A program made the position numbers and the translations under genes. From a virus (Duplodnaviria; Heunggongvirae; Uroviricota; Caudoviricetes): 38,533 nt of DNA. The stretch covers positions 1-38,533 of IMG/VR virus record IMGVR_UViG_2721755643_000003; one strand, written 5' to 3'. Positions within the stretch are counted from its first letter, which is position 1. Every line of letters begins with the position of its first letter. Shown one piece after another: positions 368-38,533 of this stretch. The notes under the pieces are model-generated. The model made no database searches and was not told the origin of the DNA. It saw nothing but the letters and a program-made list of their open reading frames with translations.

Positions 368-454
368 GCCCGGATGGTGGAATCGGTAGACACAAGGGAT
401 TTAAAATCCCTCGGCGTTCGCGCTGTGCGGGTTCAAGTCCCGCTCCGGGTACCA
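368..454 (+). tRNA. leuZ: tRNA-Leu (anticodon UAA), long variable arm
   Basis: 87-nt sequence GCCCGGATGGTGGAATCGGTAGACAC...CCGGGTACCA with anticodon loop TTTAAAAT; class II tRNA with extra arm; matches leuZ from memory. Confidence 0.95.
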
Positions 455-497
455 TGGGAAAGATAAGCATAAAATCAAAGCAATAAGCAGTGTCGTG

Positions 498-522
498 AAA
501 CCACCTTCGGGTGGTTTTTTCG
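498..522 (+). terminator. Rho-independent terminator of the tRNA operon
   Basis: Stem AAACCACC / GGTGGTTT with loop TTCG followed by a T-run (GTGGTTTTTTCG). Confidence 0.7.
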
Positions 523-993
523 TATTTGTATTTTGTGCAATGGCGGTAGAGTGGCGATGGTGTGGCGATATGCAGAAACAATGGTAGTGCACGTGCTGTT
601 TAAACTCTAAGGATGAAGCAGAATTCTTCTGCAGCTCCTCCGTATTTCGCATAGTGAACCAGGACCTCTGTTAAACAAAAATTTTTTTGGGATTTTTCCA
701 CTCGACTTCATTTTTCCTCCTGCAATCCACCAACAGGTACCTGCGCTAATCTATCTTTTTTAATCTGACAACATCTTGGGAAAAGGCAAATTCGTCAGAT
801 TTACTGTTTTTCTGCTGCCTCGAATGCCGATGTCTGAAGCACTGATAAGAGTTCTATCTCTTTGATATAGATCTTTTTTTTGATGAATTGCACGACATAT
901 TATCGTTATGACACCTTCTTGTTAAAGGTATTGTACTCCTCATCTCGATTTTATGATGTGGGCTATGATTGGTTAGTAATAGAGTGTATCGGT

Positions 994-1275
994 ATGCGAT
1001 GTGGTTTATTAATGGCAATCTGCCTTTGTTTAGTATCTTTTAGTGGATATGCAGCAACAGGAAAGTCTGATGCTCAGATCAAAAAAGAAATAATTAAAGA
1101 ATCCATTGAATCTTATCCAGGCAATTGTGCGTGTCCTTATAATCATGCAAGGAATGGTAGTAGATGTGGTGGACGCAGTGCATATAGCCGTAATGGAGGG
1201 TATGACGTGGTATGTTATGAGGGTGATGTTACCGATGAAATGATCCGGCAATGGAAGCAGGAGAATGCTGAGTAA
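994..1275 (+). CDS. Small secreted Cys/Gly-rich protein of unknown function (N-terminal signal peptide)
   Basis: ORF track 880..1275; likely start at the internal Met giving MRCGLLMAICLCLVSFSGYA signal-like N-terminus; AT-rich gene preceded by AT-rich promoter-like DNA (660-880); no family recognised. Confidence 0.4.
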   Translation: MRCGLLMAICLCLVSFSGYAATGKSDAQIKKEIIKESIESYPGNCACPYNHARNGSRCGGRSAYSRNGGYDVVCYEGDVTDEMIRQWKQENAE

Positions 1276-1351
1276 TCTCTTTTAACAGGTTTGTTGTGCG
1301 AGCATTATGTGCCGTTAACGGTACACTAGCTAGTGATAGTTCCAAAAAGAA

Positions 1352-1383
1352 AACCCGCAGTTCTTACGCTGCGGGTTTGTTGT
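1352..1383. terminator. Bidirectional rho-independent terminator between convergent genes
   Basis: Stem CCCGCAG / CTGCGGG flanked by AAAAAGAAAA on one side and TTTGTTGTT on the other, giving a U-tract on either strand. Confidence 0.6.
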
Positions 1384-1463
1384 TCACGTCTGTGAGATAG
1401 GGTGCCACTTCAGCCAACCTTAGCAACCGATTGACGGGGGATTGTTCCCCCGTCGCGGTTTCC

Positions 1464-1604
1464 TTACTGTTTACACTGTAAGAACGCCGCAAACTCCGCT
1501 CCCCAGAAGCTCATCCGTATTTCACACAGCGAACCGTGCAGCATCCAGATGATGAGGATTGCCGTCACGCAGAACGTGATGGCCGTAAGCGATTTTTGCG
1601 ACAT
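1464..1604 (-). CDS. Hok/Gef-family type I toxin-like small membrane peptide (46 aa)
   Basis: Own translation MSQKSLTAITFCVTAILIIWMLHGSLCEIRMSFWGAEFAAFLQCKQ; hydrophobic TM segment then SLCEIR and EFAAF, resembling Hok (SLCEIR...EVAAF); AAGGAG Shine-Dalgarno 8 nt upstream of ATG; below the 60-aa cut-off of the ORF track. Confidence 0.55.
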   Translation of the reverse strand: MSQKSLTAITFCVTAILIIWMLHGSLCEIRMSFWGAEFAAFLQCKQ

Positions 1605-2548
1605 AGCGCTTGCTCCTTTGTTGGAGAGGCGCTAACCTATCACTTGCTTAAGGTAGATATGTTAGGGCCTCGGTTAAACAGAAATGTTTTCCGGGGCCTT
1701 TCCACATCCGGCCTTCGGGTATTCCCTCCGACCATCAGCCGAAAGGCACCCGCGATTATTCTACTGATTTCCCGCTTCTCTGCTACGTAAAGTTTCACGT
1801 CACCCGTTCGGTTCTCCGCGAAAGTTAAAATTTTGCCGCTTTTGTCGCTGCTTTCGTGAGCGGTTTTTGCTTGCGCCTGAAAATAGTTACACAGTGAAAC
1901 TGTGTAACGCTGCGCCAAAACGATCCTTGTCCAATGTTTTGTTTTTACCTTTTATTTCATTGTGTTATGTGGTTCCTGTATGTGGCACTTTGGCGGCATT
2001 CAGATCCTTTAAAATGACGAAAACAAAAAATGGTTTTGTTTTTCATATGGTTAATTTTCCTGTCAGATCCTTTTTTAACGTTAATCTGGCAAAGCCTGGC
2101 AATCTTTGACACTTTGTGCCAGATGGCTTTTTTGTAAAGCGCCAGTGCTGGCGCGGTCTGGAGTGTCGTTTTGCACAAATTTATTTGGCAAAAAATTTTT
2201 ATCGTAAAGAGTGCAAGCGCGGGGGGCTTGCGCCCGTGCCGTGTGTTGGGCTCATCATGCCGTGAAATATCCACGTAGCGTGCGTGTACGCTTTCAGGCG
2301 TTACGAGCTGAATTCAGGGGGACTCGCGCGTTTATTTGCTTAAAGCATGTCGCAGAATGCGATACAGCGCGTCTGGTGGGGGGTGTTTTTCTGGGGGAAT
2401 GCCCGTCGCGACGGGCTTTCGTCTGGTTCGATGAATGAAATTTATTGATATATGAATAATTTCACGAAAGGCTTATTTGTCTGTATTTTGTGGCATGATT
2501 CTTGAGTGGTAAACCGGGCTGCCTGTGCACCTCTTCTCATCTGTAAAC

Positions 2549-4237
2549 TTACTGCTTAATCACGGTACTGTACTTCGCTTTCAGGTTGCCTGCCATTGAT
2601 GCCACCGTGTCTATGCTGCCGCTGTTGGTGGGCTGTGACGACCCGTTGTTGGTATGAGTGTGTTGTGCGGTGAGCTGCGCCAGTTGCTGAACGGTGTCGC
2701 AAAGATCCAGCATGAGGTTAAGTGTGTTGATGGTATTGCTGCCAAACCAGACCTGCGGGGCGATGATCTGTTGCATCTGGCCAGCGACGGATTTTTTAAT
2801 CCGGCCAATCTTTTCTTCCAGCGTTTTCGCCACATTGTGGGTGGTGCTTTCTGTGCTGGTTTGCCACTGGTGAGTAACGTCGAGTTCAGCGCTGTCGGCG
2901 TGCTGTATCAGTTTCTTCGTGGCGGCTACGGCATAGTCACCGTCTGCGATGTGCTGTATGTGGCCGCTCATCAGCTTATGAGTGCCGAGCACCGTTATGG
3001 TGTTGTTGGCCTTTACGGTAATATTACGAGTGGTACTGGTGCGCGTTTCCGTTGTGTTCTGGATGATGCGGTCGGTGGATTTCTCACGAATAACCTGATC
3101 GGTTTCACGCTGCCATGTGCCATCTGTATGCACACGCTGGAATACCTCTGCGCGTTGCTGTTGTAGTTGTTCGCCGGGCTTTATTCCCGGCAGACTCTGG
3201 CCGCTGGCGTGAGTGCCGGTGATGATGGGTTTATCCGGCCTGCCGTCAACGTGGGCCAGTGTAACTATGGTTCCTGGGGGCGGGTACTGGAATATCCCGG
3301 ATTCATTGCCGGCCATTGGCACAGGAACGGGGACGGCGTTATATACCGGTGTGTTCTTATCGGGGGTGCCGTTCTCGTCGAGCAACTGCACATTGACGGC
3401 GTAGCGTGGGCGAAATTCATCATGCAAATCCCCCTGGGTTGTGTTTTCAGTTGGTGAGATCACGCGTCCCATGCGTGGAAGGTGGGTTTTGTTGCCTATC
3501 TCGGGGTAAAGGGTTTCGATCTGGCGTTGTACGGGCGACTGACGGCCATCACTCCAGCTAATGATCATGCTGTCGCCCTGTAGCTGTACCTGATTTATAC
3601 GGTGATCGTTCATGACCACGCCGGGGCGCATCATGGGAATCGTCTGTATTGTCCAGCCATTTGCTCCGTGATCACCTCTGGTGATATCGACCGGCAATCT
3701 GGCAGGGCGTTTTGCAAAACGGCAGTCAGCAAAGCTTCCGGCGTAGATGATGCCGTCAACCGACGGATACCAGACGTAATCCGGGATACTGAATATGCGG
3801 CCAAGCATGGCCATCAGCTGATAACCGTTGCCATTGTGGGTCAGATGAGGGACCGGAGTGGTGGTGTAGCCTGCCTTCGGGAGTTGTATGCGTAAACCTG
3901 TATTGCCTTCAATGTGTCCTGCGACCTGTTTCAGCGTCGGATGCTGCATGGAGATGTTGAGCGGGTATTGCAGAATAGCAGCAGCTTCGCGCACCATCAG
4001 CTTGTGCAGCCCTCTGCCTGTACAACTGTCACTTTCCACATATCCCGAAAACCACTTTACAGGCTGATCATTGTAACCGATGGACAGCTCTACGGGTTTG
4101 CCGCGTAGCGGGGGAGTATTGTCGGCGGCGTTAATGGTGATAAAGCCGGTTCCCGCGCCGTTGAGACGCAACATGATGTTTTCTTCCACGACAGGATAAC
4201 GCCTGCCGTTAATGCAGAGATCACGAATTGGTTTCAT
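2549..4237 (-). CDS. Baseplate hub / central spike protein (gpD- and gpV-like, VgrG-like)
   Basis: 562 aa; N-terminal CINGRRYPV...LNGAGTG resembles the P2 gpD TLNGRDIT region; central GIFQYPPPGTIVTLAHVDGRPDKPIITG resembles the gpV/gp5 OB-fold; C-terminal HxH (GHIQHI); last gene of the tail operon. Confidence 0.55.
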   Translation of the reverse strand: MKPIRDLCINGRRYPVVEENIMLRLNGAGTGFITINAADNTPPLRGKPVELSIGYNDQPVKWFSGYVESDSCTGRGLHKLMVREAAAILQYPLNISMQHPTLKQVAGHIEGNTGLRIQLPKAGYTTTPVPHLTHNGNGYQLMAMLGRIFSIPDYVWYPSVDGIIYAGSFADCRFAKRPARLPVDITRGDHGANGWTIQTIPMMRPGVVMNDHRINQVQLQGDSMIISWSDGRQSPVQRQIETLYPEIGNKTHLPRMGRVISPTENTTQGDLHDEFRPRYAVNVQLLDENGTPDKNTPVYNAVPVPVPMAGNESGIFQYPPPGTIVTLAHVDGRPDKPIITGTHASGQSLPGIKPGEQLQQQRAEVFQRVHTDGTWQRETDQVIREKSTDRIIQNTTETRTSTTRNITVKANNTITVLGTHKLMSGHIQHIADGDYAVAATKKLIQHADSAELDVTHQWQTSTESTTHNVAKTLEEKIGRIKKSVAGQMQQIIAPQVWFGSNTINTLNLMLDLCDTVQQLAQLTAQHTHTNNGSSQPTNSGSIDTVASMAGNLKAKYSTVIKQ

Positions 4238-4787
4238 TGCCTGCCGGGCCTATCCAGTTATTGAGTTTGTCTGACATTTTCCAGAACCAGCCATGCTCTT
4301 CGTTTTTTTCGCCTTTGCCACCTGATTTGACGGCCTGTGCGTGCTGTTCAGCACTCTGGCTGCCAGCCGGGCCGCGTCCTGTCGCCTTTTCGGCACTGCT
4401 GAGTTTTTCTTTCAGAGTGAAGTCAACTTTCCATGCCATCAGGCCTGTTTCAGGAGTTGCGCCCACGGCACCGGAAAAAATCCCTTGCTTCATATTGACC
4501 GCTTTGGCATCCATGTTGGCGATGCGGTAAACCTGTTGTGCACCGTTAGCGGCTCTGGCTTCAGCCAGACGAAATAAGCGTGTGAGTGCTTCCGGCTGGG
4601 TGAACGGAATCAGTCCGGAAATCTGCAGCTCCTTGGCTTTTACACCCTGTTCTGAAGTCGCTGTTGATGAGGATTTTCCGGAAGCGTCTTTGTCTTTGAT
4701 GGTCAGCTTCACGCTGACACTTAAGCGTTTTAGCGGGATTATCTGACCATTAAGGGCCAGCAGTGGCGTTGTCGTGTTCTGGCTCAT
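4221..4787 (-). CDS. Hypothetical phage tail-associated protein
   Basis: 188-aa ORF on the tail-operon strand between the fibre chaperone and hub/spike; Lys/Ala/Ser-rich; no family recognised; GC content similar to core genes. Confidence 0.35.
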   Translation of the reverse strand: MSQNTTTPLLALNGQIIPLKRLSVSVKLTIKDKDASGKSSSTATSEQGVKAKELQISGLIPFTQPEALTRLFRLAEARAANGAQQVYRIANMDAKAVNMKQGIFSGAVGATPETGLMAWKVDFTLKEKLSSAEKATGRGPAGSQSAEQHAQAVKSGGKGEKNEEHGWFWKMSDKLNNWIGPAGNETNS

Positions 4788-5493
4788 TTTCTGCCTTCGT
4801 TATCCAGTTCAGCATCCCGGAAAGATCGCCTGCGAACAGGTGTGCATATGTCAGTGAAGCTGTGGGGTGCGGAATATTTTTCATCATTTCCCGGCGGGCT
4901 AAAACGGCGTCGCCGGTGTGCACGAACGCAAATGCTTTTGCCACTTTATCGCCTGCTCCTGCCAGTTCAGCGATTATCTGTTGCTGCAACCGTTGACGTT
5001 GTGCCTGAAAACCGGATAACGCGTTTTTCAGTGAGTCGACAGAGTTCAGCCCTTCGGCCTTCATAGCGTTAAGCGCGGTGTGGTTACTGATGCTGTTCTG
5101 TAGTGTGCTGGCAATAAGTGGTTGCGGAGCGGGTAGTCCGTTCTGTGGTGTCGCCGGGATTTGCATTCTGGTGATTGCCTGGGTGAGCTGTGTTCTTGCG
5201 CGTCTTAGCGTCTGCGTCAGAGTGGGTAAAGGGAGTGTGTCTGCCAGTGCTGACAGTTGACGAATAAAATCGTTATTATTGCTGCCTGTTACCATTATGA
5301 TGGCGATATCGCTGTTTTCGGTCAGGCCCGGGAGTTTGCTGTTAAGGTGGTTTATTGCGTTGACGGGGCTTAAATACGCACCGTCTGGCGTAATGTGCCC
5401 CGCTTCAACATCCCACGGATGTACGGCCATAGCTGAACATGTTATGGGGGTGATATTACCTGTCGGAAGCATCAGTTTTGCCGGAAACCACAT
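4750..5493 (-). CDS. Hypothetical phage tail-associated protein
   Basis: ORF track 4750..5688, trimmed to the Met at 5493, which has a GAGAGG Shine-Dalgarno 8 nt upstream and avoids overlap with the upstream gene; no family recognised. Confidence 0.35.
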   Translation of the reverse strand: MWFPAKLMLPTGNITPITCSAMAVHPWDVEAGHITPDGAYLSPVNAINHLNSKLPGLTENSDIAIIMVTGSNNNDFIRQLSALADTLPLPTLTQTLRRARTQLTQAITRMQIPATPQNGLPAPQPLIASTLQNSISNHTALNAMKAEGLNSVDSLKNALSGFQAQRQRLQQQIIAELAGAGDKVAKAFAFVHTGDAVLARREMMKNIPHPTASLTYAHLFAGDLSGMLNWITKAENEPEHDNATAGP

Positions 5494-30285: not shown

Positions 30286-30671
30286 GGCTGGTATCCCGTT
30301 ACGCGTTGCCACTCCTGCGAGAAGAGGGCAGAAAGGCGGTTAAACTCAGTGGTGTATTCACTCAGGGAAGCGCAGCCGCCAGCAGTGCGATGCGTCAGCA
30401 TCGCTGCAAATAAGGAGACCGGGGAGTTGTAATACGCCAGCAGGGAGTTGCCGTGTGGCGTCAGGGTGTACAGGGCCAGACCGTGTGGTGTGAAGTCCAC
30501 GCGGTAGCAGTCGTCCACGATGAAATAAAGGGGGCCTGCGTTCTCCGGTTTTGTGGTGCGTGCCTGGCTGGCACGGGCACGGAGATAGAAATCAAGCATT
30601 GCCTGAAGTTTTGGAGCCAGACGGGTGTCCTGTGTGCGCACCCATTTTACGAAGTCATGACGGTCAATCAT
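30282..30671 (-). CDS. Hypothetical early protein
   Basis: 129-aa ORF translationally coupled to gene A; no family recognised. Confidence 0.35.
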   Translation of the reverse strand: MIDRHDFVKWVRTQDTRLAPKLQAMLDFYLRARASQARTTKPENAGPLYFIVDDCYRVDFTPHGLALYTLTPHGNSLLAYYNSPVSLFAAMLTHRTAGGCASLSEYTTEFNRLSALFSQEWQRVTGYQP

Positions 30672-30743
30672 GCTGCACCTCGCTTTGTTAAAGATGTGCG
30701 AAGGCCTCCCGCCGCAAAGTGCAGGAGAGACCTGGTACCGTAA

Positions 30744-30974
30744 TTAATGGAGTTTGTTTTGCTGCTGGATGAGCTGCTGAAGCCCGCGCAGATCATCCGC
30801 CAGATAGCTGAAAACAGCGGCGGAATAGGTGTTTGACAGTGCGTGACTGCGCTCATGCAGCATATTGATGTGCATGATATGCGCGACGCGGAAGGCGCGG
30901 AAAAGTCTGCGGTTGATTTCAGTCTGGATGTGACGACGCGCAGCGTATGCGCGCTGTTGTTTGCGGTTTGCCAT
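30744..30974 (-). CDS. Hypothetical small basic protein
   Basis: 76-aa ORF with Arg-rich N-terminus; lies downstream of a 320-nt non-coding spacer. Confidence 0.3.
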   Translation of the reverse strand: MANRKQQRAYAARRHIQTEINRRLFRAFRVAHIMHINMLHERSHALSNTYSAAVFSYLADDLRGLQQLIQQQNKLH

Positions 30975-34533: not shown

Positions 34534-34629
34534 TTTTATTTCCCTTATTCAGATTGTGCGAATCCCGCCGCGTGAGCGGTGTATTAACGAAACCGGTTAA
34601 TTAACTAAAGAGGCGGCGTGCTTTACGCT

Positions 34630-34815
34630 CTACGTCTTCTTTGTGCTGAATGAATGCGTTGTATGCATCCCGTTTTTTTTCTGGCGACGTCTGTCGCGTA
34701 TTTCCCGCCATGTATCAATAAGTGTCAGTATGCAGATGGCAAAAAACATTGCGGCTGCAATCAGTGTGATAACAAATAACGACTCCGGTACACTGAATGA
34801 ATAACTGAAATTCAT
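34630..34815 (-). CDS. Small membrane protein (single TM helix)
   Basis: 61 aa with hydrophobic segment LFVITLIAAAMFFAICILTLI followed by RDRRRQKK. Confidence 0.3.
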   Translation of the reverse strand: MNFSYSFSVPESLFVITLIAAAMFFAICILTLIDTWREIRDRRRQKKNGMHTTHSFSTKKT

Positions 34816-34820
34816 CGTGA

Positions 34821-35063
34821 TTACTCCGTAATTATTGCGGGTTCGGGAACCATGCCATCCGTTAATTGTTTCGCCATCCGGTTAAGTTCTTTAAGGTCCT
34901 CGCTGGCTCCCGTATCTTTTGAACAAAACAGGGTGTTGCGGACGCTGAATATTCCGCACTTCATTACTTCGAAGTGTGTTTTTCTGGCGCGGGGATTAAT
35001 TTCGTTATCGAAGTAATATCCCTGCAGAAATTCGTTTACCTGTTCTGCTGTGTGTTTTCTCAT
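34821..35063 (-). CDS. Hypothetical early protein
   Basis: 80-aa ORF in the early operon. Confidence 0.35.
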   Translation of the reverse strand: MRKHTAEQVNEFLQGYYFDNEINPRARKTHFEVMKCGIFSVRNTLFCSKDTGASEDLKELNRMAKQLTDGMVPEPAIITE

Positions 35064-35104
35064 AACGGAGTCCTCGTTAAAAATAACCGGTGATAAACCC
35101 GCTG

Positions 35105-35455
35105 TTATAACTCAGCCTGTTTAATAAAATTTTCTCCGTAAAGAAGGCGATCAACTGTGCGTAGCGCTTCGTACAACGTGAAATCCTGCCCGAACTGATT
35201 GTCGCCGCAGCTCAGAGCAAAAATGCGGTTTCCGGTAAACGGATTGCGCGGGTATTTGTGGACCACTATTCCAGCTTTCTCAATCATCCAGGTATGCTCG
35301 CCAATTTGTTTTACTGTATGGCCATCTGGTGTTGCGTGCGTCTCGTTCAGGTTATAGCGACTGTTACTACGTGATGCACTGGTAGCGACGTGGTGTACAT
35401 GGCGTTCTACGCCATTACGAAATTTGGAGTATGGATTATTAGTGTTTTTTTTCAT
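35105..35455 (-). CDS. Hypothetical early protein
   Basis: 116-aa ORF in the early operon. Confidence 0.35.
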   Translation of the reverse strand: MKKNTNNPYSKFRNGVERHVHHVATSASRSNSRYNLNETHATPDGHTVKQIGEHTWMIEKAGIVVHKYPRNPFTGNRIFALSCGDNQFGQDFTLYEALRTVDRLLYGENFIKQAEL

Positions 35456-35476
35456 GATGATGCTCTGTTCATTGTT

Positions 35477-35680
35477 TTAGCTGTTAGCCAAAGCGTCTTT
35501 TAACATCGCCACAAGGTTTACTTCAGGCTTTTCCATTTTGGCGCGTTTGGGGCGGATAATAATTCGACCGTCAGCCAACATCTTTTTGCATGTATTAAGA
35601 GGGATACCTGTTATCTCTGCATATTTCTGCAGGGATACATAGGGGGCATTCACATTGATATTGATGGTTATACCTGACAT
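35477..35680 (-). CDS. Cox-like HTH excisionase/regulator (putative)
   Basis: 67 aa; YVSLQKYAEITGIPLNTCKKMLADGRIIIRP resembles P2 Cox YQEFAKLIGKSTGAVRRMIDKGKLPVI; second gene of the early operon. Confidence 0.5.
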   Translation of the reverse strand: MSGITININVNAPYVSLQKYAEITGIPLNTCKKMLADGRIIIRPKRAKMEKPEVNLVAMLKDALANS

Positions 35681-35696
35681 CCCACTAACCTCCTGA

Positions 35697-35903
35697 TCAG
35701 GAAGATTTGTTTTGTTCTTTCTGGGTTAGCTCTAGGCCGCGAAGGAAGATCATGCGCGCCATGTTAGAGGATGAGCGTTGTTCTTTAGCTGCCATCTCAT
35801 CAATAAAGGCGCGCTCCTCCGCTGACAGTCGAAGTGCCAGTCTTTGACCTGTGGCGGTGTTACGCGGAATGCGTGACTTGGTGTCGTGACTAACTTGATT
35901 CAT
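35697..35903 (-). CDS. Ribbon-helix-helix-like DNA-binding protein, first early gene (Cro/Apl-like role, putative)
   Basis: 68 aa; RLALRLSAEERAFIDEMAAKEQRSSSNMARMIFLRGL fits an RHH pattern; divergent from the repressor gene. Confidence 0.45.
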   Translation of the reverse strand: MNQVSHDTKSRIPRNTATGQRLALRLSAEERAFIDEMAAKEQRSSSNMARMIFLRGLELTQKEQNKSS

Positions 35904-35970
35904 AGTGGTACATTGTGATCATCTAATGGTTCGTGAAATTACTTTAGGGAACAAAACTTCCTATGTCAAC
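35904..35970. promoter_or_regulatory. Lysis-lysogeny switch region (early promoter; repressor promoter nearby)
   Basis: 59-bp divergent intergenic region; on the - strand a perfect -35 TTGACA (overlapping the repressor start codon), 17-nt spacer, -10 TAAAGT; layout as in P2/186 face-to-face switches. Confidence 0.45.
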
Positions 35971-37505: not shown

Positions 37506-37531
37506 TTTATCCTTGGTGTGCACTTTTTAAG

Positions 37532-38533
37532 ATGTCTGTTCGTAAATTACCTACTGGCAAATGGCTCTGTGAATGCTACCCCTACGGAGCAGCAGGAAAA
37601 CGCATTCGTAAACAGTTTGTTACTAAGGGTGAGGCGCTCTCTTATGAGCGCCGTTTAATGAACAGTAATTTGGGGAGCGAGTTTCAGGATGGTTCTGGCC
37701 CCCGCCTTTCCGAGTTGGTTGCTCGCTGGTTTGAGATGTACGGTAAGACACTGTCTTCCGGTGAAGAGCGAAGGGCTAAACTTGAGGCGATTTGCTCCCG
37801 GTTGGGGGATCCGCTTGCTTCTCAATTTGATAAAAACATGTTTGCCACCTACAGGGAACGGCGATTATCAGGTGAATGGAATCCAAAGGGGAAGAGGAAG
37901 CTTAGCGAAGCAACCGTTAATCGTGAGCAGTCATATCTACATGCTGTTTTTGCCGAACTGAAGCGCCTTGGGGAGTGGTCTGGTGAAAACCCCTTAACTG
38001 GCATTCGCAAATTTCGTGAGGAAGAAAAGGAACTGGCGTTTCTGTATGTAGATGAGATTGAACGCCTTCTGATTGCGTGTGATGAGTCACGGAATAAAGA
38101 TTTGGGGGTTGTTGTCCGTATTGGGCTTGCGACTGGTGCTCGGTGGAGTGAAGCAGAAGGATTAAAGCAATCTCAAGTACTGCCCGGTCGAATCACATTT
38201 GTTAAAACTAAAGGAAAGAAGAACCGCACTGTACCGATTTCACCTCAATTGCAGGCTATGCTTCCTAAAAAACGAGGAGCGCTATTTTCACCATGTTATG
38301 AGGCTTTTGACGCTGCAATTAAGAGAGCGAAGATCGAGCTTCCTGATGGGCAATTAACTCATGTGCTACGTCACACGTTTGCCAGTCATTTTATGATGCG
38401 GGGCGGAAATATTCTTGTGTTGCAAAAAATACTGGGGCATAGCGATATAAAAATGACTATGCGTTATGCGCATTTTGCTCCAGGTCATTTAGAGGCTGCT
38501 GTTGAATTGAACCCTTTTGACAATAGAGGGTAA
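37532..38533 (+). CDS. Tyrosine integrase (P2-family)
   Basis: 333 aa; ATGARWSEA, RITFVKTKGKKNRTVPIS and LRHTFASHFMMRGGNILVLQKILGHSDIKMTMRYAHFAPGHL align with remembered P2 Int motifs (catalytic R...H-x-x-R...Y); its stop is the last codon of the window. Confidence 0.9.
   Translation: MSVRKLPTGKWLCECYPYGAAGKRIRKQFVTKGEALSYERRLMNSNLGSEFQDGSGPRLSELVARWFEMYGKTLSSGEERRAKLEAICSRLGDPLASQFDKNMFATYRERRLSGEWNPKGKRKLSEATVNREQSYLHAVFAELKRLGEWSGENPLTGIRKFREEEKELAFLYVDEIERLLIACDESRNKDLGVVVRIGLATGARWSEAEGLKQSQVLPGRITFVKTKGKKNRTVPISPQLQAMLPKKRGALFSPCYEAFDAAIKRAKIELPDGQLTHVLRHTFASHFMMRGGNILVLQKILGHSDIKMTMRYAHFAPGHLEAAVELNPFDNRG

Follow-up and report, generated by a model that had tools for sequence, protein, structure and literature searches.

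A hok/sok-type toxin–antitoxin module without a mok frame beside leuZ in a P2/HP1-family prophage

In plasmid R1's hok/sok system, the antisense RNA Sok blocks translation of the mok frame, and Hok is made only if mok is translated up to the hok Shine-Dalgarno sequence, while pairing of the two mRNA ends through the tac and fbi elements is the defining trait of hok mRNAs (PMC9841398). Prophages also carry such modules, as exemplified by hokW-sokW of the Stx2 prophage Sp5, which aids lysis upon induction and encodes a 51-residue toxin that is 44% identical to R1 Hok (PMC8621323). The preprint of Escalera-Maurer et al. (bioRxiv 10.1101/2025.08.07.668861) describes hok as enriched in prophages, reports that 42 of 45 tested Hok homologs were toxic and names the three non-toxic exceptions; it leaves the mok frames, Sok RNAs and mRNA structures of the homologs unanalysed. 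Its table of tested homologs includes entry 72_1621 (plasmid pAZ3::72_1621), which is identical to the peptide considered here and is other than the three exceptions, so that, judging from the preprint text, this peptide was presumably toxic upon over-expression of the bare CDS. The closest described phage gene is gp52 of phage P88 (Xuanwuvirus, Peduoviridae), annotated as 'MokW-like host killing', whose protein is 98% identical to ours and whose transcribed region is 97-98% identical.

Here, we analysed a window, by which we mean the whole stretch of 38,533 nucleotides, and with high confidence we interpret one of its loci as a hok/sok-type type I toxin–antitoxin module that encodes a 46-aa toxin of the Hok cluster numbered 72 by Escalera-Maurer et al. 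and forms a moron in a P2/HP1-family prophage of an E. coli chromosome, at the prophage end nearest to att (leuZ). This interpretation rests on the peptide's membership in the Hok family, on an mRNA architecture that is conserved and covaries, and on the genomic context. The coding part of the locus comprises two features:

1464..1604, minus strand: CDS of the hok-family toxin, 46 aa (MSQKSLTAITFCVTAILIIWMLHGSLCEIRMSFWGAEFAAFLQCKQ), supported by the ORF list, profile matches and RefSeq WP_000078916.1
1613..1618, minus strand: Shine-Dalgarno sequence AAGGAG (1618-1613), separated by an 8-nt spacer from the ATG at 1604-1602; read from the sequence and conserved in relatives

A reading made from the sequence alone (hereafter the sequence-only reading) had proposed a Hok/Gef-like toxin ORF of 46 codons at this position, preceded by AAGGAG at good spacing, and both proposals were borne out. 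The peptide contains a single hydrophobic N-terminal helix, as well as LCE and AEFAAF motifs, and its similarity to Hok exceeds chance: residues 7-44 matched Pfam PF01848 (HOK_GEF) with 29.9 bits against a gathering cut-off of 22 (E=4.1e-7), and the full length matched PHROG 251 'MokW-like host killing' (E=1.3e-22, 80.6 bits). Moreover, M1, C12-V-T14, L26-C27-E28 and E37 account for seven of the seven residues listed as more than 80% conserved in Hok (bioRxiv 10.1101/2025.08.07.668861), and they are kept across 20 members of the cluster. The best curated NCBIfam match was HokA (NF007290), at 34 bits far under the equivalog cut-off of 89, and the threshold of the Hok subfamily NF007279 was likewise missed (21.6 vs 73 bits). 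By these profile scores, the peptide is a Hok-family member that is neither HokA nor of the R1-like subfamily, although it has the N-terminal M-x-QK and the C-terminal AAFL-x-CK in common with HokA of E. coli K-12. Taken with the control region described below, these results strongly support the core identification, namely a Hok/Gef-like toxin of type I that is accompanied by a Sok-like antisense control region.

The frame is very short and two more ORFs overlap the region, which could point to a chance ORF, with function residing only in a structured non-coding RNA or in a terminator region flanked by convergent genes. This explanation has a practically negligible probability and is already refuted by the pattern of conservation, as the profile matches are significant in three libraries and the peptide keeps 59-100% identity in E. 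coli, Shigella, Salmonella and Klebsiella alongside numerous synonymous substitutions, while the overlapping ORFs are broken in relatives. In particular, the ORFs at 1536..1790 (plus strand) and 1640..1918 (minus strand) produced zero family matches in the Pfam and NCBIfam profile searches, and stop codons break them even in relatives that are ~98% identical over the transcribed region. Both are non-coding, in agreement with the sequence-only reading, which had taken them for shadows of the toxin locus.

The boundaries of the hok transcript were located by a covariance-model match, alignments and a terminator scan:

1752..1795, minus strand: hok promoter region, with a -10 box TAGAAT at 1758-1763 and no good -35; read from the sequence and alignments
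1737..1751, minus strand: predicted 5' end of the hok mRNA, with the tac-like element GGGUGCCUUUCGGCU; position 1 of the RF01794 model falls at 1751, and the element pairs with 1400-1415
1400..1415, minus strand: fbi-like 3' element GGCUGAAGUGGCACCC, partner of the 5' end in consensus helices 1 and 2
1343..1378, minus strand: intrinsic terminator, consisting of a hairpin (1351-1378) and a T-run; terminator scan, conserved in P88 and E. coli 55989

The Rfam model RF01794 (sok antitoxin / CssrC), which covers the sok/hok-leader region, was matched over its full length at 1594-1751 on the minus strand with E=4e-8 and 44.8 bits, which makes the locus a significant relative under the curated gathering score of 59. 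By this match, G1751 is assigned as the mRNA 5' end, which lies six bases past the TAGAAT box. With the conserved transcript start at this position, as indicated by both the Rfam match and the alignments, the leader is 147 nt long, about half of the ~300 nt that had been supposed from the sequence alone. Sequence homology with the promoters of other cluster members extends to ~1795, and 1796-1950 is unrelated, rare prophage-junction sequence. Upon inspection of the sequence upstream of TAGAAT, no recognisable -35 was found. At the opposite end, the terminator had been described as acting both ways. The minus-strand hairpin at 1351-1378 was called by the scan, whereas the plus-strand T-run TTTGTTGTT is weaker and was left uncalled; bidirectional termination is hence plausible but half supported, and the element may also end the convergent plus-strand gene at 994..1275.

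The 407-nt RNA extending from 1751 to the terminator is predicted to fold with -181 kcal/mol (z=-9.3) and with its 5' and 3' ends paired, nt 1-15 pairing in the minimum free energy (MFE) fold with GGCUGAAGUGGCACCC at 1415-1400. This corresponds to the tac/fbi arrangement introduced above. To follow the structure across the family, we drew related loci from phage, plasmid and E. coli genome sequences and from exact-protein look-ups; 17 full-length transcripts with protein identities of 59-100% were aligned and submitted to RNAalifold. The resulting consensus comprises 73 pairs, and none of 500 shuffles equalled the observed values; since the 17 sequences are related and the structure was predicted from the same alignment, the meaningful part of the test lies in the slid controls, in which 37-40% of cells were paired when partners were slid by 1-3 columns compared with 98.3% in the consensus, and in the compensatory double changes, found at 17 consensus pairs compared with 1-7 in the slid controls. 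Helices 1 and 2, which join the two ends, were 99-100% paired in the 17 loci. Four of four pairs in helix 2 displayed compensatory double changes between loci of the E. coli type (UUUCGGCU / GGCUGAAG) and of the Salmonella/Klebsiella type (UUCGAC / GUCGUAA).

Within the transcript, the consensus further revealed structures around the translation start and the stop codon:

1605..1633, minus strand: hairpin sequestering the Shine-Dalgarno sequence, with an outer stem AGCGC / GCGCU and an inner stem CUCC / GGAG; MFE fold and consensus
1589..1604, minus strand: start codon and first codons, paired with 1484-1499; consensus helix 7
1484..1499, minus strand: downstream partner of the start-codon helix, in the AEFAAF codons; consensus of 17 loci
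1433..1454, minus strand: 3'-UTR hairpin right past the stop codon; consensus helix 13, with 9 pairs, 5 of them compensatory

The Shine-Dalgarno hairpin (alignment columns 122-126/146-150) was paired in 97.6% of cells across the 17 loci, while the 14 pairs of helix 7 were 100% paired in 17 of 17 loci, with G-U/G-C switches at 4 pairs. By analogy with R1 (PMC9841398), the hairpin at 1433..1454 is the likely stop for 3' trimming and would form the end of the active truncated mRNA. When the fbi box was removed in silico, the 5' end refolded onto nt 19-35, and the Shine-Dalgarno sequence, whose opening was sought in the MFE fold of the truncated mRNA, stayed paired. The sequence-only reading had suggested a search for hok fold-back elements; R1-style elements are indeed present, but the mok frame that accompanies them in R1 is absent (see below). 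Single-sequence folds also added a long-range pairing between ~1640-1655 and 1418-1432, which is missing from the consensus.

A Sok-like antisense promoter had likewise been anticipated in the leader, and a corresponding sequence was found on the plus strand:

1610..1638, plus strand: predicted Sok-like promoter, with -35 TTGCTC at 1610-1615, a 17-nt spacer and -10 TAACCT at 1633-1638
1645..1705, plus strand: predicted Sok-like RNA of ~60 nt, with a single-stranded 5' tail, a hairpin at 1664-1699 and a UUUCC tail; its ends are approximate and deduced from the sequence

In position and form, TTGCTC-17-TAACCT mirrors the R1-type TTGCGC-17-TATCCT of one related locus (L026) and lies, as there, inside the Shine-Dalgarno hairpin. 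The promoter is conserved in the 17 loci, with the exact TATCCT in some relatives. However, it matches the sigma-70 consensus at 6 of 12 positions and was left uncalled by the generic promoter scan. Because of this weak match, we infer the Sok-like antisense RNA by homology. As predicted, the RNA would begin ~7 nt past TAACCT, fold with -25.2 kcal/mol (z=-3.1) and be complementary to nt 47-107 of the hok mRNA; the hok-sense helix facing it is conserved, with one covarying pair among the 17 loci.

The same observations leave room for a functional Hok toxin whose regulator is something other than a Sok-like RNA from 1610-1705, control being exerted by mRNA folding and processing or by an RNA encoded elsewhere. 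Besides the weak consensus match, the conserved promoter bases double as both strands of the Shine-Dalgarno hairpin, so that this hairpin alone could explain their conservation, and the predicted antisense RNA overlaps no translation start, given that mok is missing. We nevertheless consider such an arrangement unlikely, as the position, spacing and hexamers mirror an R1-type Sok promoter, down to an identical TATCCT in some relatives, a hairpin with a U-tail follows directly downstream, and the targeted segment of the leader matches the Rfam sok family model. The preferred reading retains a predicted Sok-like RNA as the antitoxin.

Where the locus departs from R1 most clearly is in the mok frame. 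We searched all three frames of the locus, and no ATG, GTG or TTG opens a frame that reaches the hok Shine-Dalgarno sequence: stops occur at -46, -35 and -30 nt from the hok ATG, one per frame, with no start after them, and the position of the mok AUG reads AUA. The same search in 22 related loci recovered no consistent mok frame, the few canonical starts being sporadic and at non-conserved positions. Without a mok frame, the coupling mechanism of R1 cannot apply as described, and Hok translation would have to start directly at its own Shine-Dalgarno sequence, with the antisense RNA acting at a distance. The predicted pairing site of the Sok-like RNA is located at least 29 nt upstream of the hok Shine-Dalgarno sequence.

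These findings lead us to a tentative proposal, to which we assign somewhat less than an even chance, that the whole 46-aa Hok cluster, spanning E. coli, Shigella, Salmonella, Klebsiella, and P2-like and Stx phages, is devoid of mok, that Hok is initiated at its own strong Shine-Dalgarno sequence, and that the Sok-like RNA silences it without touching a translation start. If so, silencing would operate through RNase III-type decay, a block of a ribosome standby site or a block of refolding, and the module would resemble tisB/IstR-1 more than R1 hok/sok. An abundant Hok cluster that keeps the tac/fbi architecture and the antisense unit while mok is absent would offer a natural test case for hok/Sok regulation without translational coupling, and this cluster-wide absence of mok is the sole aspect of the locus that is of interest at the specialist level.

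In other respects, the likeness to R1 is extensive, comprising a membrane toxin of small size, a stable and long mRNA that tac/fbi pairing closes, a protective 3' hairpin, a predicted antisense promoter within the region that sequesters the Shine-Dalgarno sequence, and a predicted antisense RNA with a 5' tail and a terminator hairpin; for the leader, R1-type sequences and ours aligned poorly in MAFFT, and the elements were mapped by eye. Apart from the missing mok frame, the differences concern the size of the toxin (46 aa vs 52), the length of the leader (147 nt vs ~170) and the residence in a chromosomal prophage instead of a plasmid.

We propose that the module works as follows. A weak promoter (-10 at 1758-1763) would drive synthesis of a stable mRNA of ~350-410 nt from 1751, whose 5' end would pair with the fbi-like box at 1400-1415 and whose Shine-Dalgarno sequence and AUG would be locked in helices, rendering the full-length RNA inert. 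Slow 3' trimming to the 3'-UTR hairpin would strip the fbi box and allow the 5' end to refold locally. The short, unstable antisense RNA (promoter 1610-1638, RNA ~1645-1705) would then pair with the processed mRNA at leader nt 47-107 and bring about its destruction, in which the duplex, per the R1 paradigm, would be degraded by RNase III. Should the level of the antisense RNA drop, as when the element is lost, the prophage is induced or phages attack, Hok would be translated, enter the inner membrane and kill the cell. We infer the transcript ends, antisense expression, processing and biological role by homology, and the candidate roles, by the same analogy, may be prophage maintenance, abortive defence or help in lysis.

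The genomic context places the module at the edge of a prophage. The first 455 bases of the window encode tRNA-Gly(GCC), tRNA-Cys and tRNA-Leu(UAA), and five complete E. coli chromosomes are 99.7-100% identical over the locus (four of them at 100%), with the gene order uvrC-pgsA-glyW-cysT-leuZ. The remainder of the window belongs to a P2/HP1-family prophage, in which genes for baseplate, tail, lysis, capsid, terminase, replication and integrase functions are present. E. coli 55989 carries a complete P2-like prophage between yecA and leuZ; in this prophage, hok follows D and ogr in the final position, and the integrase adjoins a 124-bp duplicate of the 3' part of leuZ (window 400-523). This att duplicate is visible solely in the comparison with 55989; a search for att direct repeats that the hok flank shares with other parts of the window gave none that were significant. 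Identity of the window to 55989 is 99% over 1-1763 and ~93% again at 35089-35956 and 37528-38533, which correspond to the immunity-side region and the integrase of the 55989 prophage; the sequence between these 55989-like segments is that of another, HP1-like phage genome, which has an integrase of its own.

The P88 gene and the 55989 leuZ-prophage gene occupy the same place as ours, forming the last module beside ogr/D and att in a P2-like genome; other Peduoviridae likewise carry the gene at the genome end, adjacent to ogr/D. Relative to P88 and 55989, the window differs upstream of the -10, where another promoter segment is followed by rare sequence over ~750 bp, and it has an HP1-like baseplate module in place of ogr and D. 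The segment upstream of 1763 belongs to a lineage unlike that of P88 and 55989, and the same type of promoter occurs in K. oxytoca (L011) and Salmonella (L012 and L019). The sequence from 1752 to 2548 was found in five E. coli genomes only and in zero phage records. On the sequence comparisons, the junction at 1763 is most simply read as the product of an exchange between the genomes of two hok-bearing P2-family phages, which recombined within the conserved beginning of the hok transcript. We also considered that a prophage insertion had removed the hok -35, given that megablast identity to the common locus ends at 1763; this was rejected on the grounds that intact cluster members have promoters homologous to the replacement segment (to ~1795).

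The junction nevertheless bears on whether the module is alive in this strain. It could be a silent relic, in which recombination has replaced the promoter -35, mok is lacking and the native RNA never yields toxin. The identity with the common E. coli/P88 version does end right at the -10, an acceptable -35 is absent, and the Shine-Dalgarno sequence and AUG are paired in every predicted fold; in addition, a clearly dead hok remnant at ~600-755, 800 bp from the locus, shows that such loci do decay at this site. We regard a relic as quite improbable, however, considering that the replaced segment, with its TAGAAT -10, is homologous to promoters of intact members including those of K. oxytoca and Salmonella, and that the ORF, the Shine-Dalgarno sequence, the antisense promoter and all helices are intact and visibly constrained, with compensatory changes. 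Hok promoters are, moreover, characteristically weak, a general feature of the R1 system.

The locus is a real and intact hok/sok-type module, yet an ordinary one that is already annotated and catalogued. Although the sequence-only reading had called the gene unannotated, the five E. coli genomes mentioned above annotate the exact CDS as Hok/Gef family protein WP_000078916.1, the protein of the abundant cluster 72 whose tested representative, 72_1621, is identical in protein and differs from the window at a few synonymous nucleotide sites. Close copies of the locus were found in 1538 of 5426 complete E. coli genomes (~28%), as well as in phage P88, other Peduoviridae, Stx phages and some plasmids. 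As a discovery, the locus has little importance, in view of its RefSeq annotation, its PHROG and Pfam family, its occurrence in over a quarter of the complete E. coli genomes and the testing of its peptide. It does help to annotate the window, as a marker of both a recombination junction and the att-proximal end of a P2-family prophage, and it accounts for two spurious overlapping ORFs.

The names given to relatives require some care. The annotation of P88 and the PHROG name 'MokW-like' might suggest that the window toxin is hokW, an assignment we rejected: hokW-sokW of Sp5 is likewise prophage-borne and belongs to the same PHROG 251, but its 51-aa toxin falls into another cluster (PMC8621323). 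Stx phages do carry a 46-aa relative (L021) that is 74% identical to the window toxin, and this is a separate gene. In the large protein database, relatives with an NCBI name were all called 'Hok/Gef family protein', and one JGI record was called HokA. The scan of a contig database returned 6 loci only, and the diversity of the set was then drawn from exact-protein look-ups; 3 of these 6 loci were on contigs labelled Planococcaceae, Vagococcus and Xanthomonas pisi and look like enterobacterial contamination.

The 3′ part of leuZ, the tRNA-Leu gene at the start of the window, corresponds at 400–523 to the segment duplicated as att by the P2-like prophage that has integrated at leuZ in E. coli 55989. 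Both ends of this 55989-type prophage are kept in the window, one carrying hok and the other the integrase (35089–35956 and 37528–38533, ~93% identity), and the region between them is occupied by an unrelated HP1-like phage genome that possesses its own integrase (34586–35641). The arrangement of these sequences is that of a nested or recombinant prophage.

Inspection of the leuZ-proximal flank further revealed a dead second hok/sok-like locus on the minus strand (600–755), ~150 bp downstream of leuZ, in which the tac-like element of the hok mRNA 5′ end, GCAGGTACC, is still present along with the following features:

633–660, mid-CDS codons, resembling window 1508–1535
661–687, Sok-hairpin region, resembling window 1664–1690
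748–753, plus strand, retained −10-like TAGATT

Neither the antisense promoter nor the Shine-Dalgarno sequence survives in this remnant, and hok has lost its N-terminal half, all through an internal deletion of ~128 bp; the 34-aa ORF at 607..711 containing 'SLCEIR' is a fusion artefact of that deletion.

The intact hok is convergent with a plus-strand gene, with which it may have a terminator in common, and three minus-strand genes, annotated in RefSeq as 'hypothetical proteins', match phage baseplate profiles on its other side; listed with them is a toxin-like gene of the prophage's early region:

994–1275, plus strand, 93-aa Cys-rich protein with a signal-like segment at its N-terminus (WP_001303543.1, PHROG 27544)
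2549–5430, minus strand, baseplate matches (PHROG 2258 'baseplate protein', E=6e-196; Pfam HP1_ORF34, E=1e-48; PHROG 1677)
~30544–30801, minus strand, ParE family toxin-like protein, annotated in an identical genome in the early region of the prophage

By these profile matches, the three genes at 2549–5430 encode baseplate components and are structural, not cargo, and the annotation at ~30544–30801 indicates that the prophage element may carry a second, ParE family toxin-like toxin besides Hok. The segment of ~800 bp that separates the first baseplate gene from the hok promoter (1764–2548) contains no annotated genes and no Rfam matches, and displays several hairpins (e.g. 1886–1908 and 2401–2416). 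This segment was found in just 5 of 5426 complete E. coli genomes, and a sequence search returned it from none of the phage records.

Among the related loci, tandem pairs of complete hok/sok units belonging to the same 46-aa Hok cluster, ~490 bp apart, were identified in several Salmonella and STEC loci:

L016, 701–841 and 1195–1335
L017, 701–841 and 1191–1331
L024, 531–671 and 1005–1145

Copies of this enterobacterial hok (72–98% identity) were also located on contigs labelled Planococcaceae, Vagococcus, and Xanthomonas pisi (L005, L006, and L009), most likely reflecting assembly contamination or mis-binning. In the R1-type hok variant of an IncFII plasmid (L026, 294–509), the ATG of mok, the reading frame overlapping hok in plasmid R1, precedes that of hok by 57 nt, and mok is thus in frame with hok, such that 'Mok' is a 71-aa Hok extended at its N-terminus; the RefSeq annotation of this locus holds only a truncated CDS (408–509).
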